Source: an uncultured Candidatus Saccharibacteria bacterium
GTDB taxonomy: Bacteria; Patescibacteriota; Dojkabacteria; B142; JAFGMG01
DNA length: 64,000 nt
Direction: 5' to 3'
Assembly: GCA_964391325.1 (NCBI GenBank)
Contig: CAYMJM010000003.1
Location: 3,211 to 67,210 of the forward strand
The translations under genes and the position numbers were made by a program. This document shows, piece by piece, positions 6,528 through 44,399 of this stretch (position 1 is its first letter; each line of letters opens with the position of its first letter). Under the pieces are notes generated by a model. The model ran no database searches. It was not told the DNA's origin and was given only the letters and a program-made list of their open reading frames with translations.

Positions 6528-7443
6528 TTTTCAATAAATGATTTAAATGAATTTTTGATAGGTTGATTATAAGATTTGGAATAATCAAGCCTCGTTTGAC
6601 AAGATTAGACTTTGAGTCCCAGAACCACCTCGTATCAACGAATTTTAATCCTTCTTTTGAAATAATTATATTATCAGTTTTAGTAAGCCAGTTGTAAGAT
6701 TCTATAAAAATGTATCGTGGCCTTGTGTCCGGAATAATATTTATTTGATAATGCATTAGCAAAAGCAGATATATCATCAGGATCAGTTGATAAGTTTCTT
6801 CCCTTGACATTTTAGCACTGTTCACATCATGCAAAAGTTCTCCTTTTATATACTGTTGAAAAATGAATTGAGTTTTCCTGTCTTTGTTTGGCTTGGAAAT
6901 GGAAGAGCCGTATAACAGGTATTCCTTTGGTAAGAAATTGTGATAACGAACTTTGGAGTCTAGTATTTTGTCGATTTTGGAATTTAACTTTATCCCGTAT
7001 TTTTTCTCTAGCTTAGGCTTAAAGTACGGAAGTGAATCCCTGATGCTTTTCTGGGCTGTATGAATGATACCTAGATTGGGATGGAAATAGTCTTCTTCTG
7101 ATTCAAAAAATCCAAAGTACTCTATAAAGTTCAGATATAGTTGGTACTGTCTTAATATTTCTTCTTCTCTGGGCAGGAAAGTAAAAGCAAACAATTTCAA
7201 AACTCTTTCCGTTATTTCCGCAGGGAGTGGTAGCTTTTTATCTCGAAAAAGCTCGATACTGAGGTCCCATCTGCTTTCTTTAAATACCCAGTCTTCTTGA
7301 TCAATCTTATATACACGTCCCATTTGTCCTGCAGCAATTCTGTCGTAGGTTCTCTTCGCCAGAATTTTTTTGATAGGTGCAGAGTGTACGGATAGCGGTG
7401 TATAAATGGCGTGTTTTTGAAGTTGTTTTTCAAATGTATTCAT
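6517..7443 (-). CDS. Hypothetical protein (308 aa) in operon between PHP phosphoesterase and CarS homolog
   Basis: ATG start; 4-nt overlap with upstream PHP gene and 11-nt overlap with downstream CarS gene imply co-transcription; no recognisable motif. Confidence 0.6.
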   Translation of the reverse strand: MNTFEKQLQKHAIYTPLSVHSAPIKKILAKRTYDRIAAGQMGRVYKIDQEDWVFKESRWDLSIELFRDKKLPLPAEITERVLKLFAFTFLPREEEILRQYQLYLNFIEYFGFFESEEDYFHPNLGIIHTAQKSIRDSLPYFKPKLEKKYGIKLNSKIDKILDSKVRYHNFLPKEYLLYGSSISKPNKDRKTQFIFQQYIKGELLHDVNSAKMSREETYQLILMIYLLLLMHYQINIIPDTRPRYIFIESYNWLTKTDNIIISKEGLKFVDTRWFWDSKSNLVKRGLIIPNLIINLSKIHLNHLLKNVE

Positions 7444-8090
7444 TTCCGGAATAATTTGATTATTTTATTTCTCTTCGGACCTAAAAATCCCCAGAGCGAG
7501 ACAGATCGTAAAACTAATTCAGGGTTAGTTAACTGTTCAAGCAGGTTTGATACGGTGGGCGCTTCAGCTGTGAGCGTATAAGTCCGTCCAATTTCTCCAA
7601 GCGAATGAGCATCGCTGCTTGCAGCAAAAGGCTTTGAATGTTTTTCATTAAAGTCTACAACAGTATTATTTCCATTGGGCATGATATTTCGCGCATTAAA
7701 GACTTCTATAATATCAACTAGTTGGATTAGTTCTTCCAGAATTTTTTTTGGAATTCCCTTCCGTCTAATATCAAAAGGATGTGGGATGTATACAAGTCCT
7801 CCTTGTCCTTTTATTTGTTCGATAGTTTCTCCAAGTTCTTGCTCGGGAGAAATTTTCTTTTTTAGAAAAAGCCCGATCACCTCGCCTGCTGTTGTTTTGA
7901 TTTCTTCTCCGACTATAATCTGTTCTCCAAGTTCTTGGTGCAGCGCAAGAGCCAAATCTATTTCATTATGGTCAGTAACTGCCACATAATTAAGCAACCC
8001 GGATTCCAGAATCTTTTTGTATGATTCTAGAGGTATCCCTCCGTCATGAGATAGGGTAGAATGTGTATGTAAATCTAGCTTATATGCCAT
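7440..8090 (-). CDS. PHP-domain metal-dependent phosphoesterase
   Basis: N-terminal DLHTHS(T)LSHDG and internal HPF/DAH motifs of the PHP (polymerase/histidinol-phosphatase) fold; 216 aa. Confidence 0.8.
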   Translation of the reverse strand: MAYKLDLHTHSTLSHDGGIPLESYKKILESGLLNYVAVTDHNEIDLALALHQELGEQIIVGEEIKTTAGEVIGLFLKKKISPEQELGETIEQIKGQGGLVYIPHPFDIRRKGIPKKILEELIQLVDIIEVFNARNIMPNGNNTVVDFNEKHSKPFAASSDAHSLGEIGRTYTLTAEAPTVSNLLEQLTNPELVLRSVSLWGFLGPKRNKIIKLFRK

Positions 8091-13512: not shown

Positions 13513-14841
13513 ATGAGAACTTTGTATGATGAATATCGAGAAAAGCTTGCAGATTTTGTGAAGATTTCCAGTATTTCGATGGATAAAAAATACGAGGAAG
13601 AGCTAGAAGCGGCAGCTGAGTGGATTGAAGAGCTGCTGGATAACAAAGGATTATCAGTTGACGTGGTTGAGGGATATGGCAATCCAATTATAATTGCGGA
13701 TTATCAGGTGAGTAATTCTGCGGATACTTATTTGATATATGGACATTACGATGTTCAGCCAGCCAGCCAAGAGGCTGGCTGGCTGGATAATCCCTTTAAG
13801 CTAACAGAGTCTCAAGATAGACTGATTGCAAGGGGGGTAGTTGATAACAAGGGGCAAATTTTATTATACCTGACAGTGATTTTCGATTTGATAAAGCATG
13901 GAAAACTTAGGCACAATATTAAGTTTTTAATAGAGGGGGGAGAAGAGGTAGGATCCCCTAATATTGATAAATTTATTGAGAAGTATAAAGATACACTAAG
14001 CTCAGATTGTATTTTGATATCAGATGGGGCCATGCTAGGGGACCATCCAATCCTTGAAGTCGGATTTCGTGGTACCCTGAATGTGCACTTGATTTTGAAA
14101 ACTGCGGAAACCGATATGCACTCGGGAGAGTATGGTGGAGCTATCCCAAATGCTGCCCATGAACTTACTACGCTTCTATCAAAACTATATTTAAAAAATA
14201 GACAGATAAACATTCAAGGCTTTTATGATGATGTTCAATCAGTCAAGCCTCAATTTGCGCAACAGCAAAAAAGTGTAAGGTATAGCGTTGGAGAACTTAG
14301 AAAAAGTACGGGTGTGAAAGAAATTCTCACGGAGCCTAATCTAAGCATATTTTCCCAAACTGGAATGAGACCTTCTATAGAAGCTACTTCATTAAAATCC
14401 GGATATCTGGAAGAGGGTTTTAAAAATGCTATCCCTTCTCGTGCTGATGCGAAACTGAATATTAGATTGGTGCCCGCACAAAAACCTGAAAGAGTAGTAA
14501 CACTTTTGAAAAGGTTTATAGAGACAAAGTTACCTTCCTATGTTGAGTATCAGCTTCTCTCAACTGAATCTGATCATAATGAGCCCATAGTCATTAATAT
14601 TGATAATGATTACGCAAAAAAAGCAAAAAGGCTACTAAAAGAAGTTTATAAAAATCAAGTAATAGAGCACTATGTAGGAGGAACACTGCCTATCGTGAAA
14701 TATTTTCAGGATCTTTTGAAAATTCCGCAACTGTCAATTCCTCTTGCGAACCAGGACTGCCGTATGCATGGAGTAAATGAAAATTTTGAGATCAAGAAGA
14801 TTATAAAGGGTCTGGAATTTATCAAGCAATTTTTAATATAA
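13513..14841 (+). CDS. M20-family metallopeptidase (dipeptidase/desuccinylase-like)
   Basis: GHYDVQP and GVVDNKG metal-ligand motifs; start moved to ATG 13513 immediately after the upstream stop (the track start is a TTG inside the previous gene). Confidence 0.85.
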   Translation: MRTLYDEYREKLADFVKISSISMDKKYEEELEAAAEWIEELLDNKGLSVDVVEGYGNPIIIADYQVSNSADTYLIYGHYDVQPASQEAGWLDNPFKLTESQDRLIARGVVDNKGQILLYLTVIFDLIKHGKLRHNIKFLIEGGEEVGSPNIDKFIEKYKDTLSSDCILISDGAMLGDHPILEVGFRGTLNVHLILKTAETDMHSGEYGGAIPNAAHELTTLLSKLYLKNRQINIQGFYDDVQSVKPQFAQQQKSVRYSVGELRKSTGVKEILTEPNLSIFSQTGMRPSIEATSLKSGYLEEGFKNAIPSRADAKLNIRLVPAQKPERVVTLLKRFIETKLPSYVEYQLLSTESDHNEPIVINIDNDYAKKAKRLLKEVYKNQVIEHYVGGTLPIVKYFQDLLKIPQLSIPLANQDCRMHGVNENFEIKKIIKGLEFIKQFLI

Positions 14842-14895
14842 ATGCAATAAAAACATAAAAAAGTAGTTATTAGTTTACTTGGTTACATTCATAAA

Positions 14896-15078
14896 ATGAA
14901 TACAGAGTATTTTTGGTTTATTGCTTCAGGCATTTTCTGCCTTTTTGCAATTATTATTTTCCTTAGTGGAATTTATCTTTATCGAAAAGATCACAAATCC
15001 GTTTCAATTATTGCGATCTTGCTTTCTCTTCTTTTGACCTGTGCTTGCTCAACTTTTGTTACCGCTTTGTTAGTTTGA
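14896..15078 (+). CDS. Small two-TM membrane protein (hypothetical)
   Basis: 60 aa, two hydrophobic helices; weak support. Confidence 0.3.
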   Translation: MNTEYFWFIASGIFCLFAIIIFLSGIYLYRKDHKSVSIIAILLSLLLTCACSTFVTALLV

Positions 15079-15468
15079 ACCTTCTGCTTCTATAATGGAC
15101 AGTATTATCTCGCGTTTTCTGGGACCATCAAGCTCAACTACGATTACTCTCTGCCACATCCCTAATATTAATTTCCCCTCGTCAAAAGGCAGTAGTAGTT
15201 GCGGACCAATGATACTTGACATGATATGATCTGGCACATGATCTGGATTATGAGGATGGCGGTAGTTTAGCTTTGGTACCATCTCCACAAATGCATCAAG
15301 CATATCTAGATCTGTACCGGGATCAAGATCCGCTGTAGTTAAAGCAGCTGTTGTATGTAGTACAAGAAGATTACAGAGACCGCCAGTAGATGGAAGCTCT
15401 TGCTCTATAAGCTTAGTTATATCAATAATTTGTTTATTTTGCTGTGTGTTTATAATAATTTTCTTCAC
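15070..15468 (-). CDS. YjbQ/UPF0047 family protein (secondary thiamine-phosphate synthase-like)
   Basis: LHTTAALT, DPG, HPHNPDHVPDHI..GMWQRV motifs characteristic of YjbQ; 132 aa; overlaps ogg by 4 nt. Confidence 0.85.
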   Translation of the reverse strand: MKKIIINTQQNKQIIDITKLIEQELPSTGGLCNLLVLHTTAALTTADLDPGTDLDMLDAFVEMVPKLNYRHPHNPDHVPDHIMSSIIGPQLLLPFDEGKLILGMWQRVIVVELDGPRKREIILSIIEAEGSN

Positions 15469-16298
15469 TTTATGTTGTGTTTTCTAACGTATTCAAATAG
15501 AAACTGTCCCGCGTATGCGGCATAACCGTTGAAGTAATTCTTATACCATTTCCGCATTTGCTCGTAATTGAGTCTAGAGGAAAGGTTGTATAGCTTTATT
15601 AGAAATCTCTGCCCCCAGATGTCTAGAGGGGTGACGTTCGAAAAGCCAAGTGAATAAGTAAGTATACAATCAGCTACTTTCGGTCCTACACCTTCTAACT
15701 GTAGCAGATTCCCGCGTGCCTGTTCCTCGTCCATACTCTTAATTGTTTCGTTTATTTGGGCTTGGAGCAAGGAGTTCGCACTCCTTTTTATGTACTCAGC
15801 CCTATATCCTAGTTTTGCTTGTCTTAGTGTTTCTATAGGGGCGTGAGCAATTTCCTCTGTTGCTGGATATAAATAAAATCTGTGGAAATTTATCTTTATA
15901 TCTTTTCCTAAGTTCTTAGAAAGTAGTTTTCTACTTTGGCGAATAAGTTTGAGATTCCTATTAGTAGAGCTGATGAAATTTAGAACAGTTTGTTCAAAAG
16001 GCTGCCTAAGAATTTTAATATTACCAAATTCCTGAATAGCTTTAGTCACATGCAAATCTCTTCTGATCTCAGCTATAATTGTTTCATATGCTTCATCTAA
16101 AGCAAAGTATTTTTTTATCAATTGATAATTATCTTTCTGAGGGTAGGTTTGCCATAGAATACCAGTCTGTATAGGCTTGATCCTGATAATAGCTTCCTGC
16201 GTACTTGCAAAGTACTCATCATCAACCGGCTCCCAGTTGAAGTCTTGTCCGCCTAGTAAAGTTATAGGAAGGTTGTAGTTGAATTCCAATTCATTCAT
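15465..16298 (-). CDS. ogg: 8-oxoguanine DNA glycosylase/AP lyase (Ogg family, HhH-GPD)
   Basis: HhH-GPD element LQLEGVGPKVADCILTYSLG...PLDIW with catalytic Lys and Asp; 277 aa. Confidence 0.8.
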   Translation of the reverse strand: MNELEFNYNLPITLLGGQDFNWEPVDDEYFASTQEAIIRIKPIQTGILWQTYPQKDNYQLIKKYFALDEAYETIIAEIRRDLHVTKAIQEFGNIKILRQPFEQTVLNFISSTNRNLKLIRQSRKLLSKNLGKDIKINFHRFYLYPATEEIAHAPIETLRQAKLGYRAEYIKRSANSLLQAQINETIKSMDEEQARGNLLQLEGVGPKVADCILTYSLGFSNVTPLDIWGQRFLIKLYNLSSRLNYEQMRKWYKNYFNGYAAYAGQFLFEYVRKHNIK

Positions 16299-16364
16299 AC
16301 AAATAATTCTAACATGTCATCAATATAGTTTTGCAGAAAGTAGAGAATTGAATTATCATTAGTT

Positions 16365-17654
16365 ATGGAATTGATAGTAGATTTACACATACACTCACAC
16401 TTCTCTCGGGCAACCAGTAAAGAGATGAACATAGCATCTCTTTATAGGTGGGGTAAGATAAAGGGAATTAACGTCATTGGTACCGGAGATTTTACACATC
16501 CACTTTGGTATAAAGAGCTTATGGATAAGCTGGAGCCTGCCGAGCCAGGATTATTTAGACTTAAAGAGGAGTATGCCAAAGAGCAGGATGACCAACTTCC
16601 TGAGATTTTAAAAGGGAAGTTAATCAGGTTTATCCTCACAGTTGAAATTAGTAATATTTACTCGAAAAACAATCAAGTACGTAAACTCCATAATGTACTT
16701 ATAGCTCCAAGTTTCCAAGCTGTTGCAGAAATAAATGATAGGCTTTCCAAAATCGGAAACTTGAAAGCGGATGGGAGACCAATTCTAGGGCTCGATAGTA
16801 AAGAACTGCTTCGGATTTCTATGGAAACCAATCCTGATAACTTTTTTATTCCAGCTCACATATGGACACCCTGGTTTTCTATGTTTGGCTCAAAATCAGG
16901 CTTCAATGCTATCGAAGAAGCCTTCGAAGAATTATCTCCAGCAATAAAAGCAGTTGAAACTGGTTTATCTTCTGATCCATACATGAACTGGAGAATCAAT
17001 GAGTTGCAAAACGTGACTTTGGTTTCTAATTCAGATGCTCACTCTCCTTGGAAGCTGGGAAGGGAGGCTAATACACTAGATTGTAAGTTGTCTTATTATG
17101 AAATTATTAATGCAATCAAAAAAGGAGATGAACGCTTTATAGGAACAATTGAGTTTTACCCTGAGGAAGGAAAATACCATTATGATGGACATAGAGTCTG
17201 TAAATTTCGCTGTAACCCAGAGAAAACAAAAGATTTAAAAGGAATATGTCCCAAATGCGGGAAGCCTTTGGTCGTTGGTGTGCAGAGTAGGGTATCTGAA
17301 TTATCGGACAATCCGTTTGATTACAGACCTAAAACATATAAAAAGGTTGAGTATATCATTCCACTTCCAGAGATTCTTTCCGAATTACGAGGAGTCAAGA
17401 ATCCACAATCCAAAACAATTAATAGTATGTATGAAGAAATGTATTCGAAATTAGGAGACGAGTTTAGTATACTCCGTATAGTTCCAATAGAAGAAATTCG
17501 TACTGCTGGATTCAGTGCTATCGCAGAAGGGATAAGCAGGATGCGACAAGGTAAAGTAACAGTTGAACCGGGCTATGATGGTATTTATGGAGTTATCAGA
17601 GTTTTTGAAGAAGGAGGAACAGAAAGAATAACAGGACAGCAAAAATTACTTTAA
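16365..17654 (+). CDS. Endonuclease Q-like protein (PHP domain plus C-terminal Cys4 zinc finger)
   Basis: N-terminal DLHIHSHFSRATS PHP motif, NSDAHSP, and C-x3-C-x11-C-x2-C finger (CKFRCNPEKTKDLKGICPKCG); 429 aa matches EndoQ architecture; divergent from ogg-yjbQ. Confidence 0.65.
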   Translation: MELIVDLHIHSHFSRATSKEMNIASLYRWGKIKGINVIGTGDFTHPLWYKELMDKLEPAEPGLFRLKEEYAKEQDDQLPEILKGKLIRFILTVEISNIYSKNNQVRKLHNVLIAPSFQAVAEINDRLSKIGNLKADGRPILGLDSKELLRISMETNPDNFFIPAHIWTPWFSMFGSKSGFNAIEEAFEELSPAIKAVETGLSSDPYMNWRINELQNVTLVSNSDAHSPWKLGREANTLDCKLSYYEIINAIKKGDERFIGTIEFYPEEGKYHYDGHRVCKFRCNPEKTKDLKGICPKCGKPLVVGVQSRVSELSDNPFDYRPKTYKKVEYIIPLPEILSELRGVKNPQSKTINSMYEEMYSKLGDEFSILRIVPIEEIRTAGFSAIAEGISRMRQGKVTVEPGYDGIYGVIRVFEEGGTERITGQQKLL

Positions 17655-17700
17655 ATATAACCATCCTATTGAAAAATAAAATATTTTTTATGATAAATAT

Positions 17701-18627
17701 ATGTATAAAATAATTGGACATTTATCCCCAGATACTGATTCTACTTGTGCTCCTATTGTTTATGCTTGGTATCTAAGGCACAAAGATATGGACGTAAAGC
17801 CTTTTATTACGGGAGATCTCAACCGTGAAGCAGCTTATGTGCTAGAACATTTTGGTGTAGCCAAACCGGAATTACTAGAATCGCTCAGTAAAGAGGATAA
17901 ATATTTTCTAGTCGACACAAATAACCCTGAAGAACTTGTAAGCGGATATGATAAAGCTGAGTTAATGGGAATAGTGGATCACCATAAATTAGTTGGTGGA
18001 TTAAACACTGAATCTCCAATTCATATTACTATCCGTCCAGTTGCATGTACGATGACAGTTATCTGGGAGTTGATGGAGAGAGATGGTATTACAGATATTC
18101 CGCAGGATGTGGCTGGGCTTATGCTGGCTGCTATTCTTTCAGATACGTTAAAATTTACCAGCCCAACCACTACAAATATTGATAAAGAGATCGCAGAGAA
18201 GCTGGCAGATATAGCAAGGGAAGATATGGATAAGTTAGCGGAGGAGATGTTTGCTGCAAAATCTAACTTAGAAGGAATGTCAGCTAAAGACATACTATTA
18301 TCCGACAGCAAGAAATTTGACTTAAATGATAAAAAGCTGAGGGTATCAGTGCTGGAAACTACGAAGCCAGAAAATTCACTAAGCCTGAAAGAGGGTCTGC
18401 TTGATGCCATGCAAGAGATAAAAGAAGAGGAGAAGTTGGACGGATTTTTCTTCTTTATCGTGGATATTTTGAATACAGAATCTCATTTAATAGTACCAGG
18501 AGAATTTGAGGTAGAGCTAGCACAAAAAGCTTTTGAAGGCAGGTTTGCGGATAAGGCGATGCGACTGCCAGGAGTTGTTTCGAGAAAGAAGCAAATGATA
18601 CCGAATATTCAAAAAACACTGTCTTAA
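17701..18627 (+). CDS. ppaC: Manganese-dependent inorganic pyrophosphatase (family II, DHH/DHHA2)
   Basis: N-terminal IGHLSPDTDS, DHH motif (VDHHKL), 308 aa. Confidence 0.9.
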   Translation: MYKIIGHLSPDTDSTCAPIVYAWYLRHKDMDVKPFITGDLNREAAYVLEHFGVAKPELLESLSKEDKYFLVDTNNPEELVSGYDKAELMGIVDHHKLVGGLNTESPIHITIRPVACTMTVIWELMERDGITDIPQDVAGLMLAAILSDTLKFTSPTTTNIDKEIAEKLADIAREDMDKLAEEMFAAKSNLEGMSAKDILLSDSKKFDLNDKKLRVSVLETTKPENSLSLKEGLLDAMQEIKEEEKLDGFFFFIVDILNTESHLIVPGEFEVELAQKAFEGRFADKAMRLPGVVSRKKQMIPNIQKTLS

Positions 18628-18645
18628 AACTGCAGAAAGACTAAA

Positions 18646-20562
18646 ATGGATGATCTAAACCTAGAGCAAAGAAGGGCTGTTGAATTAATTAATGGCCCTG
18701 TTGTAATCAAGGCCGGTCCTGGTACGGGGAAAACAAAGACGCTGGTTGCTAAAATAAGTTATTTGCTTCATTCTGGAGTACATCCTGAGGCGATACTAGC
18801 ACTTACTTTCACTAAAAAAGCAGCAAAAGAAATTGCAAGCCGTATTAAAATTAGCGAATCAAGTAGCAAAAAACATCTTAATGTTTATACATTTCACAGC
18901 TTTGCTTACGAACTTCTGAGACAAGAGAATGATAATGTAAATATCATAAATAACGACCAGAAAAGAAAAATCCTTTTAGGTTTGCAAGAAAGTGCCCCTG
19001 ATATTAAGAATATTAGTTTGAGAGAGCTAGAGTTAATTATAAGCAGGGCTAAAAATATAGAAACCCGAAATGAGAAAATTCAACAATTAGTTGACACATA
19101 TCAAAGATTGATAGAGGCGGAGGGATTTATAGATTTTGATGATCTCTTGCTAAAGCTTATTAATTCTCTCTCAGACAACGCTACCAAATTACAGCAAATC
19201 CAAGACAAGTACCGCTATGTTCTAGTGGATGAGTTTCAGGATACTAATTTTATTCAGTATAAACTGATCCGGATGCTCACTGGAAAGTATAGGAATATAA
19301 CTGTAATTGGAGATCCTTTACAGTCAATTTATACTTTTAGAGGCGCTGATAGCACTATATTTGACCAGTTTTTCAATGACTATCAAGAAGTGGAAGTTGT
19401 TGAATTTACGGTCAATTATCGTTCGCGTAAAAGTATTTTGAAAACAAGTACGAGGCTGTTTCCAGATAGCAGAGAACTGCACTCTTTCAAAGAAGGGCAT
19501 CCGGGGGTGGTAGCTTTGATTGAGACATTAGATTCTTATACAGAAGCTGCATGGATTATTAATAAAGTAGAGGAAAAAGTAGGAGGCAGTGATTTAAACA
19601 AAGCATCTGATATGGCTGGCAATCAAGATGAGTCAGCTCGTTTTAAAGATTTCGCTATATTATACAGAGTGCATGGCATTAACCATGTCATTGAACAGAA
19701 GCTAAGAGAGTCAGGGATTCCATATCAAAAAGTGGGGGCAGAAAGTATGTATGATAAAAAAGAGATCAATTTTATTATCACACTTCTTAAATACTATCAT
19801 TCAAGAGAAGATAAAGACCTACTTCTTGTGCTGAGTCATCCTTATTTAAAATTATCACGAGCAGTTTTAGGTAAAATACAACGTTTCTATAAGAATGAAG
19901 GCAATTTACGGGAAATGCTTCTAACAATTATCTCTCAGAAAAATTTGACAAAGTCACAGATTGGAAAATTAAGGACAATAATAAATAATATTGAACAAAT
20001 TGATTCTGTTATCAAAGAATCAAATGTATCCGCTGTTGTGAGCTTCATTGTAGAAAAGTTTAATATACTTGAGTCTGGAAATGAACAAACTGAGTTGGAG
20101 ATTAGGGAGTTTATTAATAATTTAGGTAGATTTGAAGATGATCCAGCCAGTCTGGGCACATTTCTCGATTATCTTACCGAAATAGAAGCTCAAGATTATT
20201 ATGATGATAAGGTTGATAAGATCTCTTTAATGTCGATTCATGCAGCAAAAGGCTTGGAGTTTAAATATGTTTTCATTATAGGTTTAGAGGAGGGGATAAT
20301 TCCTTACCAAAAGAGCATTGAGGAAAACAATATCGAAGAGGAGAAACGGCTTTTGTATGTTGGAATGACAAGAGCAGAAGACGGTCTTTATCTTCTATAT
20401 ACACAAGAGCGTTGGAAAGAAGGCTACATAAAGGCTTCTTCCTTTAAGAAGTTCATTGAGGGCAAGCCTTTGCTGGAGATCCAAGATGAGGCAATAGCAA
20501 AGGTAAAAAAGGCAAGGGAAAGGTACAAAGCTAAAAAAAGTCAAATTAGGTTTGGAATTTAA
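18646..20562 (+). CDS. ATP-dependent DNA helicase, UvrD/PcrA/Rep family
   Basis: Walker A AGPGTGKTKTL, motif VDEFQDTN, C-terminal helicase motifs VGMTRA; 638 aa. Confidence 0.9.
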   Translation: MDDLNLEQRRAVELINGPVVIKAGPGTGKTKTLVAKISYLLHSGVHPEAILALTFTKKAAKEIASRIKISESSSKKHLNVYTFHSFAYELLRQENDNVNIINNDQKRKILLGLQESAPDIKNISLRELELIISRAKNIETRNEKIQQLVDTYQRLIEAEGFIDFDDLLLKLINSLSDNATKLQQIQDKYRYVLVDEFQDTNFIQYKLIRMLTGKYRNITVIGDPLQSIYTFRGADSTIFDQFFNDYQEVEVVEFTVNYRSRKSILKTSTRLFPDSRELHSFKEGHPGVVALIETLDSYTEAAWIINKVEEKVGGSDLNKASDMAGNQDESARFKDFAILYRVHGINHVIEQKLRESGIPYQKVGAESMYDKKEINFIITLLKYYHSREDKDLLLVLSHPYLKLSRAVLGKIQRFYKNEGNLREMLLTIISQKNLTKSQIGKLRTIINNIEQIDSVIKESNVSAVVSFIVEKFNILESGNEQTELEIREFINNLGRFEDDPASLGTFLDYLTEIEAQDYYDDKVDKISLMSIHAAKGLEFKYVFIIGLEEGIIPYQKSIEENNIEEEKRLLYVGMTRAEDGLYLLYTQERWKEGYIKASSFKKFIEGKPLLEIQDEAIAKVKKARERYKAKKSQIRFGI

Positions 20563-20584
20563 GGATTGGTAAATACTTTTTAAA

Positions 20585-21029
20585 CTAGCGTTTAGATACT
20601 GGGTTAGCACAATTCTTGCAGTAACCAAAAAATTCTATAGAGTGGTCAATTTTCTTAAATCTCAACTTTCTTTGTATTTTTATTTCAGTTTTTAGTATCA
20701 ATTCTTCCACTCCTCTTAGTTCTACAGCAATAATTTTACTACAGCCCTTACACACAATATGATGGTGGTGCTTCTTTTGTGCCAATTCGTAGCGGATATA
20801 GTTATCGTTAAAGTATACTTCTTTGATTATCCTATTCTGTAGTAAAAATTCAAGATTTCTGTATATAGTAGCTTTGTCTGCAGAGGTAACTTTACGTACC
20901 TTGAAAATAATTTCTTTTGGGGTTAGCGGCTTATTAGCTTCCATCAAAGCTTCAAGGATTGATAGTCGCTGCTTGGTTATACGAAAACCTCGATTTTTTA
21001 ATCTGTCTGTTAGCTCTAAAGTTTTCATA
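20585..21029 (-). CDS. Fur-family metalloregulator (probable Zur)
   Basis: HHHH-x-C-x2-C ... C-x2-C metal sites, winged-helix N-terminus; divergent from znuACB; start set to ATG at 21029 (track start 21037 is TTG). Confidence 0.85.
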
Positions 21030-21031
21030 CT

Positions 21032-21058
21032 TGACAATTAAAACACTTAATTATAATA
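21032..21058 (+). promoter_or_regulatory. Candidate sigma70 promoter of znuA (TTGACA -35, TATAAT/TAATAT -10) embedded in AT-rich imperfect palindrome TAATA-N5-TATTA (possible Zur box)
   Basis: TTGACA at 21032-21037, TATAAT at 21053-21058 (15-nt spacer) or TAATAT at 21055-21060 (17-nt); 35-40 nt upstream of the znuA ATG. Confidence 0.4.
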
Positions 21059-21091
21059 TATGTTATTAGTTATTACAACTGAGTTGCAATA

Positions 21092-22030
21092 ATGGACAAG
21101 AAAAAAATAATCCTTTTTGTAAGTGCAGCTATTCCGATCCTTTTAGTACTGTTTTTCCTTTCTTTTCCTGAGAGGCAGGAAAAGAAAGACGACAAGCTAA
21201 AAGTAGCGGCGAGTATTTTTCCAATATACGATATAACAAGGCAAATAGCAGGAGACAAAGTCGAAGTAGTGCAAATACTTCCTAATAACCAGAGTGAGCA
21301 TACATACAGCCCAACAATTAGAGACAAGGAAAGGGTAATGGGTTCAGACGTTGCATTGTTAATAGGGTTAGGGATAGATGACTGGTGTATAGACCTCTTA
21401 GACGACGATACTCTGACTTATACTCTTTATAAAGATATCAATCTGATTGCAGCAGAGGAGCTGGCAATCGAGGAAGAAGGTGTTATTGAAGATGATCATG
21501 AAGAGTATGAAATTGCGGACCCACATTACTGGATGTCGATTCAAAACGGCATAATTATTACTGATAATATTAAGAATATTTTATCAGAGATGGATCCAGA
21601 TAATTCTGACTATTATGAAACACAAGCTAATCAATATAAAGCCCAACTTGCTGTAGTATATGATAAGTATCAGCAAAGTTTACATGAATTAGAAAAGAGA
21701 GAATTAGTTACCTTTCATGAAGCTTTTAACTATCTGGCAAGGGAATTGGGATTAAATGTTGTCGCGACAATAGAACCATTTGCTGGCAAGGAACCCAGTC
21801 TTGCTTATATACAAAAGGTTGGGAAGATAATAGAAGAGTATGATATTAGAGTTTTATACAAAGAACCTCAGTTATCAGATGTTTCCTTAGAGCCTTTAAA
21901 AAACGCTTATGACGTTGAAATAAGAACCTTAGACCCATTAGGAGGTGTGGAAGACCGAGATTCCTTTATAAAATTGTTAGAGTATAATATAAATATAATT
22001 TTTGAAGACCTTAATGAAAACAGTAATTGA
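21092..22030 (+). CDS. znuA: Metal (Zn/Mn) ABC transporter substrate-binding protein, ZnuA/TroA family
   Basis: Signal-anchor, cluster-9 SBP fold motifs, acidic/His loop DDHEEYEIADPHYW; 312 aa. Confidence 0.85.
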   Translation: MDKKKIILFVSAAIPILLVLFFLSFPERQEKKDDKLKVAASIFPIYDITRQIAGDKVEVVQILPNNQSEHTYSPTIRDKERVMGSDVALLIGLGIDDWCIDLLDDDTLTYTLYKDINLIAAEELAIEEEGVIEDDHEEYEIADPHYWMSIQNGIIITDNIKNILSEMDPDNSDYYETQANQYKAQLAVVYDKYQQSLHELEKRELVTFHEAFNYLARELGLNVVATIEPFAGKEPSLAYIQKVGKIIEEYDIRVLYKEPQLSDVSLEPLKNAYDVEIRTLDPLGGVEDRDSFIKLLEYNINIIFEDLNENSN

Positions 22031-22667
22031 GCTGAAGGATATCAGTGCTGGTTATAATAACGCTTTAGTATTAAAGGATATAAACCTTGCCATAAAAGAA
22101 GGAGAACAGCTGTTTGTTTTGGGAGGCAATGGTTCTGGAAAAACTACTTTAGTTAAAACAATTTTAGGCTTGGTCAAGCAAGATAAGGGGGAAGTTTTGA
22201 TATATGGCGAAAGACGTACACAAGAAGCAGTCGCAAGTAACTTCGGCTATGTCCCACAATCAACCTCTGGTATTAGGACTTTTCCAATATCAGTAAGTGA
22301 AGTTATTAAAATTGAATGTAGTATGGCTGATAATTGTCCAGTAGGAGTGATTGAGCATTTAGAAAAGTTTAATGCTGAACATCTTATGGATAGAAAGTTG
22401 AGCGATTTGTCTGGAGGTGAGTTTCAGAGAGTTCTGCTGGCTCGAGCATTTGTTACACAGCCGCAAGTGCTTGTCTTGGATGAGCCAACCAATAATCTTG
22501 ATGTAGAGTCTATTCATAGATTGCATGAAATAATTGTTGACTATAAAAATAGTGGACATACTATTATTACTATATCTCATGACGATGATGTCGTAGAAGA
22601 AACTCGAGTAGATAGTAAATCCAGAGTGGTTAAACTAGAGGAGGGTACATTAGTTAATCTAGATTAA
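22014..22667 (+). CDS. znuC: Metal ABC transporter ATP-binding protein
   Basis: Walker A GGNGSGKTT, signature LSGGEFQRV, Walker B VLVLDEP; start moved to ATG 22014 (track start 22002 is TTG). Confidence 0.85.
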   Translation: MKTVIELKDISAGYNNALVLKDINLAIKEGEQLFVLGGNGSGKTTLVKTILGLVKQDKGEVLIYGERRTQEAVASNFGYVPQSTSGIRTFPISVSEVIKIECSMADNCPVGVIEHLEKFNAEHLMDRKLSDLSGGEFQRVLLARAFVTQPQVLVLDEPTNNLDVESIHRLHEIIVDYKNSGHTIITISHDDDVVEETRVDSKSRVVKLEEGTLVNLD

Positions 22668-22668
22668 T

Positions 22669-23481
22669 ATGAATATTATCGATACGTTTACACAACCATT
22701 TATGCTACAGGCCTTATTTGTTGGTATCTTGGTAGGAATTTTACTGGCAGTATTAGGTGTCTTCATAACCTTAAGAAATAAGGCGTTTTTGGTAGATGGG
22801 ATTTCGCACGGATCTCTGGCAGGCATTGCTATCGGTTTAGTACTCTTCGGCCAGCCATTGATGCTTGCACTTATGGTCGCAGTTTTAATTGCAGTAGGCA
22901 TCACGTATTTTCAGAAAAATTCAAACGTGCAGGTAGATTCTTTAATAGGAATTTTTTATACAGTTTTCTTTGCACTTGGAGTCCTTATAATCAATCTTTC
23001 TAGTAGTTACCAGCCTGATATCACCAGGTACTTATTTGGGTCTTTATTATTTTTAGATGAGGGATCTATGTACCTGTCAGCAGGAACCTTTTTTATAGTG
23101 TTTATTTTAATATTATTTAACTATTCCAAATTGCTATATGTTACCTTTGACCCTGAGGCTGCTTATATCAGAGGAATAAAAGTGGATCGATGGGAACTCT
23201 TACTAAATATTATGACAAGTATGGCAATTGTTATTGCCTTAAAACTTATTGGGGTCGTAATGGTTTCAGGGCTCGTCATTATTCCAGCTAGTATTGCCAG
23301 GTTGCTAGCTAGAGATTTTAAGTCCATGATTCCCGTCTCTATTTTGGCAAGTATTACCTCTACTATATTAGGGATAGTACTTTCGTATTATCTTGATGTT
23401 CCCTCCGGGGCCTCTATTGTGATGATCGCCGGGATCATCTTCCTTCTGTCGTTCCTTCTTCATAAGATCAGACTGTTTTAA
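22669..23481 (+). CDS. znuB: Metal ABC transporter permease
   Basis: 270 aa, 7-8 TM helices, immediately follows znuC (1-nt gap). Confidence 0.85.
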   Translation: MNIIDTFTQPFMLQALFVGILVGILLAVLGVFITLRNKAFLVDGISHGSLAGIAIGLVLFGQPLMLALMVAVLIAVGITYFQKNSNVQVDSLIGIFYTVFFALGVLIINLSSSYQPDITRYLFGSLLFLDEGSMYLSAGTFFIVFILILFNYSKLLYVTFDPEAAYIRGIKVDRWELLLNIMTSMAIVIALKLIGVVMVSGLVIIPASIARLLARDFKSMIPVSILASITSTILGIVLSYYLDVPSGASIVMIAGIIFLLSFLLHKIRLF

Positions 23482-25666: not shown

Positions 25667-26827
25667 TCATGCGCCAATTATTATCAACTCTTCCTGAGCA
25701 CGGGTTACTGCAGTGTAAAGCCATTTTTTCCACATTTCGTCCGTCATCTGCTTAAATCGTTCTTCAAACAGAACGACTTTTTTCGCTTCGCTTCCTTGGG
25801 CTTTATGGACAGTCAGGGCATATCCATAATCGAATAGATCTGCTTCTAAAGTTTCCTTACGTTTACTGGAAAAATTATAAACCATTTTTGAGTTGAATTG
25901 TTGAGCCAAGATAATACCTTGGAAGAAATGTCCATCATCAAATTCTATTTTCGCATAATAATCCTTCGTTTCTGGGCTAATTGAGTTAATAGTGCCTAGC
26001 ATTCCATTAAATATCTGCTTTTTATGGTTATTACGAAGACAGATAACTCTATCTCCGATTACTGGAATTTCCGTTTCAATGCCTTTATTTTGTCTGATTT
26101 GTTGATTTAGTTTAATACGTGTGAAGTTGTAACCACAGAGTATTAAAGTATTTGAGTTATATCCTTGCAATATGTCTTCAAGCTCATTATAAATATCCGG
26201 ATCATACCTATTGATTTTTCTTACGCCGTTACCAAAGACTCCTACGGGGATTTGTCCGGTTTGTCTGGCTATTTGTGATACATGGATGATAGGATCTCCT
26301 GCTGCCTGGCGATGTATCTGTTCCAGCTTGATATCTGGTTGCTGCATCAAATTAAATTCTCCCTCTATTGGCGGTAGCTGTCCATGATCTCCCACAGCTA
26401 GTACTGGTATTGAATAACTCAGCATATCCTGCCAGATTCTTTGATTAACCATAGATGCTTCATCAACAATAATTAAATCAATATCTATAGTATCTTTTCC
26501 TTCCCATCCAATGATTTCCTCTGTTTTAGGGTCTATGATCGGGGAGTAGAATAGAGAATGGATGGTGCCTATATAATCTTGCTTATATTTTGATTTGGAG
26601 TGCGAAATCTTGCCTTCCAGAACTCTTGCTCCCTTTCCAGTGTAGCTTACAAAAGCAACTTTAAGTTTATTATTTTTCTTATGGAGTTGTTGCCTTAGTA
26701 TGGAAATAAGGGTTGTTTTTCCTGTGCCTGCATAACCTCCTAACGTGATATAAGATTTCTTGTCCTTTTGTCTATACCATGACAGCAGAACGTCTAATGC
26801 GTATTTTTGGTCGGGAGATAGTTGCAT
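25667..26827 (-). CDS. RecD-like/Dda-like SF1B ATP-dependent DNA helicase
   Basis: Walker A GYAGTGKTT, Walker B IIVDEASM, motif VGDHGQLPP, C-terminal TVHKAQGSE and TAVTRAQ; start set at ATG 26827 (MQLSPDQ...), the track N-terminus upstream is hydrophobic junk. Confidence 0.8.
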   Translation of the reverse strand: MQLSPDQKYALDVLLSWYRQKDKKSYITLGGYAGTGKTTLISILRQQLHKKNNKLKVAFVSYTGKGARVLEGKISHSKSKYKQDYIGTIHSLFYSPIIDPKTEEIIGWEGKDTIDIDLIIVDEASMVNQRIWQDMLSYSIPVLAVGDHGQLPPIEGEFNLMQQPDIKLEQIHRQAAGDPIIHVSQIARQTGQIPVGVFGNGVRKINRYDPDIYNELEDILQGYNSNTLILCGYNFTRIKLNQQIRQNKGIETEIPVIGDRVICLRNNHKKQIFNGMLGTINSISPETKDYYAKIEFDDGHFFQGIILAQQFNSKMVYNFSSKRKETLEADLFDYGYALTVHKAQGSEAKKVVLFEERFKQMTDEMWKKWLYTAVTRAQEELIIIGA

Positions 26828-26912
26828 GACATAATATTGTAACAGAAGAGGTAGCCAATATAAATAATATATTGGATATATATGATATAATATTACGTTT
26901 ATACTAAATAAT

Positions 26913-27899
26913 ATGAGAGAGGTCAACTCGCCTGTATGGGAGCAATGCAAAAATAACTTCAATAGGAGAGGCATTATAGATATCGTGAGAAGACCAGATG
27001 CATGGGCGCCTATTTTAGATAGGGTGCTAGAGACATTTCTCGAAAGTCAGGAAGGATTTATTAGAATTTATGAAAAAGCGCTTAAAATGCCCTGTGAAGC
27101 TAGTTTAAATGTGATTGATGTCGGTGATATTTCATTAGGTGGAGTAATTACTTATGATTTTGGGACGCAAGCTGTCCCTTTATTTAGAAGAGACTACCTT
27201 TCCAATTCAGAACAAGACAGGGTAGTTGAACAGATACCTGTTGTAAATATAGATGCTTCACGAAGGAATAAGTATATAGGTATCAGTGGACCAACAAGTT
27301 TAACATCAGGCTTCTTGAACAATGGCATTTTGTCAGTTGGACCACAAGGAGAGATTGTTTCGACAGGTATTCCTCCTTTCAAGGGTGGAATAATTATAAA
27401 ACAAGATTTATCTCTAGAGCTAGCAACAGCCGAACAATTAACAGAAATTCATTTTGATAGGGAGACTAATATAGCAGCATTAGGCGCTTCTTTGACTCTA
27501 GATACAAATTTTCTGCATGAACTGCAGCCAGGGGAAGCAGATCTTCTTCTATTAGCAAGAAGTATATGTATAGAAAATAAATATTTAGACTCATATAATG
27601 ACCAGTTTGGTTTTCTTTCCCAATCTAAAAAGGGTGATATGCTATATCATGTTGTTTCTTATTCGCCTAGAAGGGGAGACGAAGTTCACGCCGCAAATCC
27701 AACGTCTCACTTTCCCGATCCAATAGGAGAAAGTGTCGTTTGGGGAACATATTTATTGCTAAGGCATTTAGAGACTTACAAAGAGCCTAGAACAGCAGTG
27801 CTGCTGGAGGAATTTATACGTGGAGTCCCTTTTGTAGTTTCGAGGCATAGACGCCAAACTGCGCCAGTAGAATTCCTTTTCCCGGTCCAAGCAAAATAA
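26913..27899 (+). CDS. Hypothetical protein (328 aa), locally elevated GC
   Basis: Clean ATG start, long ORF, no recognisable motif; divergent from helicase gene. Confidence 0.55.
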   Translation: MREVNSPVWEQCKNNFNRRGIIDIVRRPDAWAPILDRVLETFLESQEGFIRIYEKALKMPCEASLNVIDVGDISLGGVITYDFGTQAVPLFRRDYLSNSEQDRVVEQIPVVNIDASRRNKYIGISGPTSLTSGFLNNGILSVGPQGEIVSTGIPPFKGGIIIKQDLSLELATAEQLTEIHFDRETNIAALGASLTLDTNFLHELQPGEADLLLLARSICIENKYLDSYNDQFGFLSQSKKGDMLYHVVSYSPRRGDEVHAANPTSHFPDPIGESVVWGTYLLLRHLETYKEPRTAVLLEEFIRGVPFVVSRHRRQTAPVEFLFPVQAK

Positions 27900-42756: not shown

Positions 42757-43212
42757 ATGTCAATTTTTGGTGATCTAAATGAAGCGCAGGTAATAGGTAA
42801 TATGACCCAAGATATAGAAGTGCGTTATACTACGAATGGCAGTGCAGTTGCAAATTTTTCTGTTGCGACAAATAGAAGTTTTCGGAGGCAGGGGAGTGAT
42901 GAGTGGCAAGAAGAAGTAGCTTTCCATAATATTGTTGTCTGGGGGAGCGATGCAGAATCATTGAGCCAAAGAGCCAAAAAAGGAACACGAATATACATTA
43001 AAGGACGGTTGCAGACACGATCCTGGGAAGATCAAGATGGCAAAAAAAACTACAGGACAGAAATTATCGCAGAAAAGATTATCTTACTTGATAGATATGA
43101 AAGGGGCGCTCAGGAGTCTGCTAGTCCAACTTCCAAACAGGTCTCTTCTGAACAAAAGGCAAGTGAGTCCACTTCTTCAGACGAGATTGACCCAGATGAC
43201 TTACCATTTTAA
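42757..43212 (+). CDS. ssb: Single-stranded DNA-binding protein
   Basis: OB-fold N-terminal region, disordered linker and canonical acidic tail ending DDLPF; 151 aa. Confidence 0.9.
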   Translation: MSIFGDLNEAQVIGNMTQDIEVRYTTNGSAVANFSVATNRSFRRQGSDEWQEEVAFHNIVVWGSDAESLSQRAKKGTRIYIKGRLQTRSWEDQDGKKNYRTEIIAEKIILLDRYERGAQESASPTSKQVSSEQKASESTSSDEIDPDDLPF

Positions 43213-43220
43213 AAGTTAAT

Positions 43221-43610
43221 ATGGGCAAGACATTTAAAGAAATGGTAAAAATTATTGATGATTTTTGTGAGCAAAGAAAGTGGGATAATGGCGAGCCTAA
43301 CCATCTTATTTCTTCGATTTATATTGAACTGGGGGAGTTAGCAGAGAACTATCAATGGCAACATAAGTTTAACAAAGAGCTGACAGAAGAAGAAAAGAGG
43401 GTAATTGGGTATGAGTTTGTAGACGTAATTTTTTATCTTTTCCGGCTGGCGTCTAAAACGGGTGTAGATATTGAAAAATACTTCGACGAAAAAGTGCCAA
43501 AACTACAGAAAAAATTCCCGGTAAAGAAAGTGTTAGGTCTGAATAATCAAAGTTTAAGAGAAATCCATGACAAGTATAGAAAAGAAGGTAAGAATAAATT
43601 ATACAGTTAG
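43221..43610 (+). CDS. MazG-like nucleotide pyrophosphohydrolase domain protein
   Basis: All-alpha EExxE...E/D pattern (IELGELAENYQW, YEFVDVIFYL); 129 aa. Confidence 0.7.
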   Translation: MGKTFKEMVKIIDDFCEQRKWDNGEPNHLISSIYIELGELAENYQWQHKFNKELTEEEKRVIGYEFVDVIFYLFRLASKTGVDIEKYFDEKVPKLQKKFPVKKVLGLNNQSLREIHDKYRKEGKNKLYS

Positions 43611-43622
43611 TTCCTAAGCTGG

Positions 43623-44162
43623 ATGTTCAAGACTATTTCGCATAAGAAAATTTATCAGAATAGATGGCTTACTTTCTATGCAGACAGCATATCTTTTCCT
43701 AATGGTGCAAAAGGAGTTTATGGCTACGTTGAGAGAAATAGTGGAGTGTCTATTGCAGTCTTGGACAAAAACTATAGCATCCTTCTTATAGAACAATACA
43801 GGTATCCTACTAAAAAGTGTCATATAGAAATTCCTGCTGGTTCTATAATTAAAGGAGAAACTCCAGAACAAGCATGTTTACGTGAGTTAGCTGAAGAAGC
43901 GGGGATTTACGAAATAGAGGAATTGGAATTCTTACAAACATACTATCCTTTGAGCGCACACAGTACTGAAACCCAGAGTCTATTTATGGCTAGGGTTCAG
44001 AGGTTTTCAGAATTTAAGGGAACTGAATTTGATGAAGATATCCAAAGCTACCTAGTCACACCTATTGATAAAGCTTTGAAAATGATAGATATAGGAAAGA
44101 TAGATGATGCAATAACCTCTAATGCAATTCAGCTAGTACATAGAAAGTTGAATAAAAAATAA
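43623..44162 (+). CDS. NUDIX hydrolase
   Basis: Nudix box GSIIKGETPEQACLRELAEEAGI (Gx5Ex7REUxEExGU); 179 aa. Confidence 0.85.
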   Translation: MFKTISHKKIYQNRWLTFYADSISFPNGAKGVYGYVERNSGVSIAVLDKNYSILLIEQYRYPTKKCHIEIPAGSIIKGETPEQACLRELAEEAGIYEIEELEFLQTYYPLSAHSTETQSLFMARVQRFSEFKGTEFDEDIQSYLVTPIDKALKMIDIGKIDDAITSNAIQLVHRKLNKK

Positions 44163-44189
44163 ATTTATCATAAAATAAATTGGCTTAGA

Positions 44190-44399
44190 AAAGGAATAGT
44201 AGACATATACAGAGAGCTGTTATGTTCTGAGAGACAGGAAATGTCGAACCTACCTTGGAGCTATCCTGGGAAACTAGGACGCATATCAGCGTTAAGATAT
44301 AATGAGTCTGTTTTAACAGTAAATTAAGGTGGTACCACGAGAAAGCTCGGCCTTATACACTTCATTTTTTGATATGATGTATAAGGCCGAGCTTTTTTC
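44190..44399 (+). promoter_or_regulatory. T-box riboswitch-like leader of proS (candidate Pro specifier CCU; antiterminator/terminator switch)
   Basis: T-box consensus AAATTAAGGTGGTACCACGAG at 44321-44341 (vs AATTAGGGTGGNACCGCG). Antiterminator fold: helix A1 AAGG/CCTT, 7-nt bulge TGGTACC, helix A2 CGAG-AAAG-CTCG. Overlapping 17-bp terminator hairpin 44343-44359/44378-44394 followed by TTTTTT. Candidate specifier CCT-A at 44249-44252. Confidence 0.7.

Follow-up and report, generated by a model that had tools for sequence, protein, structure and literature searches.

EndoQ in a Dojkabacteria genome: a bacterial homologue with conserved linkage to a PcrA/UvrD-like helicase

EndoQ enzymes and the window homologue

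Endonuclease Q (EndoQ) cuts DNA on the 5' side of a lesion; the products are a 3'-OH end and a lesion-bearing 5'-phosphate (PMC4357722). The archaeal 'family 1' enzymes, including those of Pyrococcus furiosus (PfuEndoQ, PF1551; PDB 5ZB8 and 7K30-7K33) and Thermococcus kodakarensis (TK0887), are built from three domains, and the same architecture is found in a protein of 429 aa encoded by the DNA described here. This DNA, referred to below as the window, is a stretch of 64,000 nucleotides (guanine and cytosine content of about 36%) from an uncultured Candidatus Saccharibacteria bacterium assigned to Dojkabacteria by GTDB (assembly GCA_964391325.1, contig CAYMJM010000003.1, positions 3,211 to 67,210). 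Downstream of the EndoQ gene, the window encodes a PcrA/UvrD-like helicase of superfamily 1A (SF1A). It is likely that the 429-aa protein is a stand-alone bacterial EndoQ which incises 5' of deaminated bases and of abasic (AP) sites, and that the helicase is its conserved functional partner.

In Archaea, a C-terminal PIP box mediates the stimulation of EndoQ by PCNA, to which the enzyme binds (Shiraishi et al. 2016, PMC4858679). A classification into three families 'based on the domain organization' is cited in the 2018 structure paper (PMC5961232). According to PMC5961232 and PMC8307549, the enzymes of Bacillus pumilus and B. subtilis (YqxK) are the only bacterial members with biochemical data (Shiraishi et al. 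2017). These are short, stand-alone proteins like the window EndoQ and are reported to nick 5' of deoxyuridine (dU), deoxyinosine (dI) and AP sites, as the archaeal enzyme does. B. subtilis YqxK is also listed among abasic-site binders in one proteomics table. A literature search under the names COG1379, TIGR00375, yqxK and MJ0043 returned nothing relevant other than this table.

Incision beside a deaminated base without the help of a glycosylase is also the mode of action of the Mth212/ExoIII dU endonuclease, of Endonuclease V (EndoV, Nfi) and of Nfo, whose folds are unrelated to that of EndoQ. The cut made by EndoV falls at the second bond 3' of the lesion and, to our knowledge, none of these enzymes has been reported fused to a helicase. 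On dU, Mth212 resembles EndoQ in cutting on the 5' side (PMC4357722, PMC8307549).

Judged by its sequence, its modelled fold and its active-site residues, the product of positions 16365-17654 is an EndoQ homologue. A phmmer search of PDB gave full-length matches to PfuEndoQ (5zb8 and 7k30-7k33) at E 1e-51 (1.1e-51 for 5zb8), residues 5-416 being aligned with residues 5-385 at an identity of about 30%. An AlphaFold2 model built from 48 homologues (pLDDT 91, pTM 0.90) has the three-domain EndoQ fold, with a PHP barrel, a domain that binds Zn and a helical domain at the C-terminus. In a Foldseek search of PDB, EndoQ structures rank first, with template modelling (TM) scores TMq/TMt of 0.81/0.87 for 5zb8 and 0.78/0.84 for 7k30 (overall TM 0.78-0.88). 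The alignment of the C-terminal domain to PfuEndoQ 304-385 is continuous, helices are predicted between residues 334 and 394 of the model, and a precomputed Pfam match to PF27218 (MJ0043_C) covers this domain. The first-pass annotation, made from the DNA letters and their translations, had proposed an EndoQ architecture from the motif DLHIHSHFSRA, which is indeed present at residues 6-16, and from a zinc finger. Of the comparators that it named, the P. furiosus sequence and an EndoQ crystal structure bear out the assignment.

The protein might instead be a generic PHP phosphoesterase or exonuclease carrying a zinc ribbon, with no specificity for lesions. Such a reading could draw on the Pfam scan of the 429-aa protein, where the sole match is a weak one to PHP_C (E 0.0013, below cutoff), and on a TIGR00375 score below the trusted cutoff. 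Generic PHP phosphoesterases do come next in the Foldseek ranking, but they reach a TMq of only 0.33 and cover the PHP domain only, whereas the superposition on EndoQ takes in all three domains, at TM 0.81-0.88. The first-pass annotation had said that best homologues of this generic type would speak against EndoQ; the best homologues found are EndoQ itself. Full-length sequence similarity, the Foldseek result and the conservation of the lesion pocket and Trp wedge in addition to the metal ligands effectively refute the generic esterase, whose probability is very small.

Residue conservation was followed in an alignment of 197 sequences, in which 195 bacterial homologues join PfuEndoQ and the window protein. 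PfuEndoQ numbering was rebuilt from a pairwise alignment and reproduces every published residue; the roles of the residues are those given by Miyazono et al. 2018 (PMC5961232) and by PMC8307549, which summarises the DNA complexes. The metal ligands H8, H10, E76, H84, H139, D193 and H195 of PfuEndoQ correspond to H8, H10, E94, H109, H165, D224 and H226 of the window protein and are invariant in 191-197 of the 197 sequences. Pocket and wedge residues T142, W144, E167, G169, L170 and N191 correspond to T168, W170, E198, G200, L201 and N222, which are invariant or nearly so in the same set. S171 is matched by S202 in the pairwise alignment, a position invariant in a 48-sequence alignment. Metal ligands, lesion pocket and Trp wedge are otherwise identical to those of the archaeal enzymes, the sole pocket difference being L168 of PfuEndoQ, replaced by T199. 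This leucine touches the base through main-chain atoms only (PMC5961232). The window protein further differs from PfuEndoQ in that its PHP domain carries insertions of about 25 residues (near positions 64-83 and 98-104).

The zinc site is another point of difference from archaeal EndoQ, the first ligand being His (HCCC versus C4). The columns aligned with C249, C252, C268 and C271 of PfuEndoQ hold H276 (195/197), C279 (195/197), C295 (197/197) and C298 (197/197). On this alignment, the Cys4 site of the archaeal enzyme is replaced in the bacterial clade by one of the His-Cys3 type (G-H-R-x-C ... C-P-x-C). The C-x3-C-x11-C-x2-C finger of the first-pass annotation is literally present at residues 279-298, but its C279 and C283 are not a conserved pair, position 283 being Cys in only 16 of the 197 sequences. 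Nor is the finger C-terminal, as had been stated: it lies about two thirds along the protein, in the middle, Zn-binding domain.

Linkage and fusion to a PcrA/UvrD-like helicase

Gene context was compared in 80 genome loci encoding EndoQ relatives at 49-64% identity, from Patescibacteria, Omnitrophota, Nitrospirota, Chloroflexota, Desulfobacterota, Gemmatimonadota, Latescibacterota, KSB1 and others. A search with the proteins neighbouring EndoQ in the window found a UvrD-like helicase in 54 of them. Sixty-three loci retain 2.5 kb or more on the downstream side of EndoQ and were considered informative: in 48 of these the helicase follows downstream, encoded by the same strand (within 600 bp in 43), and in none does it lie upstream or antisense. 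No other neighbour is recurrent: all-versus-all clustering of 856 flanking open reading frames (ORFs) gave a next cluster present in 13 of the 80 loci, at mixed positions. The helicase is also retained in closer relatives of the window EndoQ, at 78%, 71% and 67% identity. The conserved unit is EndoQ together with a UvrD-like helicase, a partner overlooked in the first-pass annotation. The archaeal enzymes are not reported to have such a link.

A single continuous ORF of about 1,040-1,220 aa encodes both EndoQ and helicase in 28 loci (one is cut by the contig end). Moreover, an exhaustive HMMER search of 1.84 billion cluster representatives (50% identity) retrieved 1,005 clusters at E <= 1e-30; among the best 150 of these, 119 representatives are at least 1,000 aa long with EndoQ at residues 1-430. 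Long bacterial forms (about 950-1240 aa) from Desulfovibrio, Geobacter, Caldilinea, Rhodothermus and others are listed in PMC4858679 (Suppl. Fig. S1). Their EndoQ domains are 48-55% identical to the window protein, and they carry a single QL[DS]LF motif at the far C-terminal end of the fused helicase polypeptide. In the window, by contrast, the two proteins are encoded by separate genes, each ending in a motif-like tail, with a pyrophosphatase gene between them. In a rough neighbour-joining tree built from EndoQ domains, fused and stand-alone forms are interspersed, with 10 or more changes of state; the tree carries no support values and is a hint only. The label 'DNA helicase UvrD/PcrA' is attached in JGI and NCBI to many EndoQ proteins of stand-alone size, about 430 aa (P0015, P0030, P0038, P0082 and P0105 in our set, and others), and these mislabels were probably transferred from fused EndoQ-helicase proteins.

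The window helicase belongs to SF1A, like UvrD and PcrA, and has all seven motifs, with motifs I-VI intact (GPGTGKT 24, DEFQD 195, GDPLQSIY 222, NYRS 257, HAAKGLEF 532 and VGMTRA 572). It matches the Pfam families PF00580 (UvrD-helicase) and PF13361 (UvrD_C), and its closest structure in PDB is PcrA 1pjr (E 8.5e-76, aligned to residues 11-642 of 724). Compared with PcrA, it is about 90 residues shorter at the C-terminus, where it ends in a tail resembling a clamp motif. Its scores fall far below the equivalog cutoffs for pcrA (367 versus 911), rep (348 versus 951) and uvrD (294 versus 1144). Ten other EndoQ-linked helicases or helicase domains from seven further phyla, from the candidate phyla radiation (CPR) and from outside it alike, behave in the same way, with 317-589 bits against cutoffs of at least 911. 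These shared sub-cutoff scores suggest that the EndoQ-linked helicases form a distinct PcrA-like subgroup, as judged by profile scores and not by a tree with the canonical paralogues.

Shorter EndoQ-linked helicases, of about 470-555 aa, occur in Omnitrophota, Nitrospirota and their relatives and cover about 56-62% of the window helicase (loci L017, L019, L020, L023, L026, L029, L034, L040, L047, L048, L061, L067, L074 and L086). For the two that were scanned against NCBIfam, from L019 and L074, the match to the PcrA model is confined to two stretches. These short forms seem to miss a sub-domain.

Clamp-binding-type tails and a possible repair route

The bacterial clamp-binding consensus is QL(S/D)LF (PMC9690074), and tails of the QL[D/S]LF type were noted in more than 40 bacterial EndoQ homologues (PMC4858679, Suppl. 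Fig. S1). In these homologues the putative interaction motif stands at the C-terminal end, as in the archaeal enzymes, but it is of the bacterial beta-clamp type and not a PIP box. In the present set, tails of stand-alone homologues include QLSLF, QMSLL, QLGLGI and the like. The strict pattern QLxLF/QLxLxL is found at the extreme C-terminus of 70 of 109 stand-alone EndoQs, and a loose pattern in 102 of the 109; shuffles gave 0.1 and 6.6, respectively. The strict pattern also ends 13 of 27 linked stand-alone helicases and 61 of 119 fusions (shuffling of the last 40 residues gave strict-pattern means of at most 0.1). It is placed in the inter-domain linker in only 8 of the 119 fusions. The window helicase ends in SQIRFGI, which fits a hexapeptide-like form of the clamp motif, and the helicases of close relatives end in SQIGFNL, AQITLSI and SQMELF. 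The window EndoQ ends in GQQKLL; tails QQKLF and QQALF are found among the bacterial EndoQ sequences of PMC4858679 (Suppl. Fig. S1). From these sequences, both proteins may bind the beta sliding clamp. The EndoQ motif was already known; what is added here, at the level of sequence, is that the split helicase keeps a motif while EndoQ has its own.

A helicase-dependent branch was drawn for EndoQ repair in 2015 (PMC4357722), and the fusion and linkage data give this branch a concrete bacterial candidate. In such a route, both proteins would be tethered to the beta sliding clamp via their C-terminal tails. EndoQ would flip dU, dI (hypoxanthine), deoxyxanthosine (dX, xanthine) or an AP site into the pocket beside its Zn-loaded PHP active site and would cut the bond immediately 5' of the lesion, giving a 3'-OH and a lesion-bearing 5'-phosphate. 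The SF1A helicase, with a presumed 3'->5' polarity, could then load on the intact strand and move from the nick past the lesion, peeling off the damaged 5' end, while a clamp-bound polymerase extends the 3'-OH. The displaced strand would be removed by a flap or 5'-3' nuclease and the nick would be sealed by ligase. UvrD classically unwinds DNA from a repair nick in mismatch and nucleotide excision repair; the window helicase differs in being genetically tied to EndoQ and not to MutL or UvrAB. It is tempting to go further and propose that EndoQ and a dedicated PcrA-like helicase, fused or split, constitute a self-contained, clamp-tethered 'nick-and-unwind' excision pathway, in which each split half bears its own clamp tail. 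This wider proposal is tentative, and somewhat less probable than its negation.

Several observations weigh against a lesion-specific EndoQ working with this helicase. The window EndoQ scores 173 bits on TIGR00375, a hypothetical equivalog (E 1.2e-50, full model), well below the cutoff of 326.6. Fused bacterial relatives score similarly (168-182 bits), so that the whole bacterial clade appears to be sub-threshold for this model and, on its sequence, divergent. Ligation of zinc by a set in which His replaces Cys is a prediction, and the EndoQ tail, GQQKLL, agrees with the loose Q-x-x-L pattern but not with the strict one. No helicase is present in the flank of 15 of the 63 informative loci, and in the window a pyrophosphatase gene intervenes. 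The helicase could also double as the sole PcrA/UvrD of reduced CPR genomes. Finally, the literature searched holds no biochemistry of a helicase-linked or fused bacterial EndoQ.

A different function was considered for the pair, namely an anti-phage or anti-foreign-DNA system in which DNA containing uracil, hypoxanthine or other non-canonical bases is cut and the helicase drives its degradation. Nuclease-helicase fusions and pairs are a common design among defence systems, and the review PMC8307549 credits the idea to the 2017 EndoQ paper. The helicase also matches the GajB models of PADLOC, but these matches amount to generic UvrD-family similarity, and PADLOC returned no match for EndoQ (nor for the Ogg, YjbQ and pyrophosphatase proteins of the locus). 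The gene table of the locus lists no GajA-like protein, other defence gene or mobile-element gene, and no defence-type neighbour recurs in the 80 loci. The conserved clamp tail and the retention of the pair in small CPR genomes are better explained by replication-coupled housekeeping repair. A defence role is therefore improbable. Gabija (GajA and GajB) was examined as a specific candidate and rejected, there being no GajA OLD/TOPRIM nuclease beside the helicase.

Neighbouring genes, distribution and significance

The features of the locus are collected in Table 1. The three ORFs of the first-pass annotation, for YjbQ, Ogg and the PHP protein, were recovered at the positions it gave, and the identities of the first two hold. 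YjbQ passes both of its models (PF01894 with 96.5 bits versus a cutoff of 27, TIGR00149 with 86.9 versus 67.75). Ogg is of the Ogg1 type, with OGG_N and HhH-GPD domains (PF07934, 48 bits versus a cutoff of 23; NCBIfam ogg subfamily model, E 1.1e-34), and stays below the cutoff of TIGR00588 (120 versus 398). Its best PDB match is full-length, to Clostridium acetobutylicum Ogg (3f0z, E 5e-32), and on alignment with this structure the catalytic lysine lies in GVGPKVADC and the aspartate in P-[LV]-D (PLD). On sequence, the ORF matches and family assignments at the locus are beyond chance.

Table 1. Features of the EndoQ locus (window coordinates)
Feature	Coordinates	Strand	Basis
YjbQ/UPF0047 protein, 132 aa	15070..15468	-	PF01894 E 1.5e-27; TIGR00149 86.9 bits
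Ogg1-type 8-oxoguanine DNA glycosylase/lyase, 277 aa, catalytic K207 + D226	15465..16298	-	OGG_N E 1.4e-12; PDB 3f0z
Divergent intergenic spacer ogg/endoQ, 66 bp	16299..16364	.	
EndoQ-family lesion-specific endonuclease (predicted), 429 aa, stand-alone 'short' bacterial form	16365..17654	+	phmmer vs PDB, TIGR00375, AlphaFold2/Foldseek
EndoQ PHP catalytic domain, residues ~1-265	16365..17159	+	column mapping onto PfuEndoQ
EndoQ Zn-binding domain, residues ~266-332, H276-x2-C279-x15-C295-x2-C298	17160..17360	+	197-sequence alignment
EndoQ C-terminal helical domain, residues ~333-417	17361..17615	+	PfuEndoQ 304-385 alignment; PF27218
EndoQ tail GQQKLL, residues 424-429, degenerate beta-clamp-binding-type motif	17634..17651	+	position matches homologue tails
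Family II (Mn-dependent) inorganic pyrophosphatase (ppaC)	17701..18627	+	NF003877 345 bits vs cutoff 283
PcrA/UvrD-like SF1A helicase, 638 aa	18646..20562	+	1pjr E 8.5e-76; Pfam UvrD-helicase, UvrD_C

The first-pass annotation had grouped Ogg, YjbQ and EndoQ in a compact oxidative and deamination repair module, which could be co-regulated from one divergent control region. The genes ogg and yjbQ overlap by 4 bp, ogg and endoQ diverge across just 66 bp, Ogg and EndoQ both belong to authentic base-damage enzyme families, and the whole layout (ogg-yjbQ / endoQ-ppaC-helicase) is identical in the 78% relative (L087). However, a tblastn search with the window neighbour proteins found Ogg, YjbQ, the pyrophosphatase, an M20 peptidase and a methyltransferase beside EndoQ in 0 of the 80 related loci each. 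The 71% (L088) and 67% (L090) relatives lack ogg, yjbQ and ppaC, and their helicase gene comes right after EndoQ. An M20 peptidase gene adjoins EndoQ on its upstream side in the 71% relative, which suggests that ogg-yjbQ arrived between the two later, in the window lineage. A metagenome scan with Ogg retrieved two other loci (43% identity), with neither YjbQ nor EndoQ within 4 kb, and YjbQ is not a DNA-repair family. The spacer contains a single weak sigma-70-like match (TTTGCA-18-TATCAT, 16330-16359, plus strand) and no significant promoter signal. The module is not supported by conservation and, with its shared control region, is improbable; on these comparisons the ogg-yjbQ pair is a recent, lineage-specific neighbour outside the EndoQ-helicase module. 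The 71% relative also has an ExoIII-type (Exo_endo_phos) gene (L088, 3061-3828), some 2 kb upstream of EndoQ and transcribed in the same direction, which could be an AP/dU endonuclease neighbour.

The pyrophosphatase gene is found between EndoQ and helicase only in the window lineage and the 78% relative. It is an insertion outside the conserved module, with no obvious functional reason for its position. Co-transcription of endoQ, ppaC and the helicase gene is likely, if unproven, from the gaps of 46 bp (endoQ-ppaC) and 18 bp (ppaC-helicase) and the lack of any terminator-like site between the genes. Over positions 14800-20800, promoter-like matches (25, versus 20.5 +/- 4.3 in shuffles) and terminator-like matches (4, versus 3.4) are at background level, so that the scan neither supports nor opposes shared regulation or an operon. 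An Rfam scan of the window found tRNAs and one T-box only, with no match at the EndoQ locus. The T-box leader (44177-44357) exceeds the gathering score, with 97 bits, and is located upstream of a gene for a class II aminoacyl-tRNA synthetase (44428-45663).

Metal-uptake genes follow the helicase gene directly (20585-23481), with a Fur-family regulator on the minus strand and a ZnuA/ABC/ABC-3 operon on the plus strand. They adjoin the genes of a Zn-dependent EndoQ and a Mn-dependent pyrophosphatase, with the same layout in L087, and a Fur gene is near the EndoQ-helicase pair of L090 too; this adjacency may be plain synteny. Elsewhere in the window, genes for a single-stranded DNA-binding protein, a MazG-like/dUTPase_2 protein and a NUDIX hydrolase stand in a row (42757-44162), which looks like nucleotide-pool sanitation and bears on uracil in DNA. 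A DinB/Pol IV-like (IMS) gene is located on the minus strand at 56837-58099. A second helicase gene nearby, PIF1/RecD-like and of superfamily 1B (25667-26974, minus strand), lies beside rubrerythrin and U32 peptidase genes and has no linkage to EndoQ in other genomes. A second, small PHP_C-domain protein of 216 aa (7440-8090, minus strand) has an architecture unrelated to EndoQ.

The best EndoQ matches with names come from Dojkabacteria, Pacebacteria, Woesebacteria, Parcubacteria and Saccharimonadia, which makes a Patescibacteria/CPR source most likely on the protein evidence; the identical protein sequence was met on metagenomic contigs only. The window gene had been thought to extend the distribution of the family. 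This claim falls: CPR homologues (Parcubacteria and Microgenomates), with short forms from Parcubacteria, Daviesbacteria and Woesebacteria, many long forms and many other phyla are already present in PMC4858679 (Suppl. Fig. S1), and the name 'endonuclease Q family protein' is already in use at NCBI for close relatives. This 2016 supplement likewise shows the fusion architecture and the EndoQ clamp motif. In the literature searched, which did not include Shiraishi et al. 2017, EndoQ is mentioned together with UvrD/PcrA only incidentally, and no paper besides PMC4858679 connects it with the bacterial clamp. The motif of the split helicase, the repeated fusion or fission and the pathway itself appear to be uncharacterised there.

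For the locus itself, little changes: it adds one more recognisable EndoQ gene in a bacterial group already listed. For the family, the roughly 1,000 clusters (50% identity, E <= 1e-30) across many phyla contrast with reviews in which EndoQ is still a mainly archaeal enzyme, known from 'a limited number' of bacteria (PMC5961232 and PMC8307549 among them). The helicase-coupled form is dominant among the closest relatives, and no mechanism has been characterised for it in the literature searched; it is open to standard oligonucleotide, helicase and clamp-binding assays. If the nick-and-unwind proposal is true, the EndoQ-helicase pair could be a main route of uracil and hypoxanthine removal in genome-reduced bacteria.

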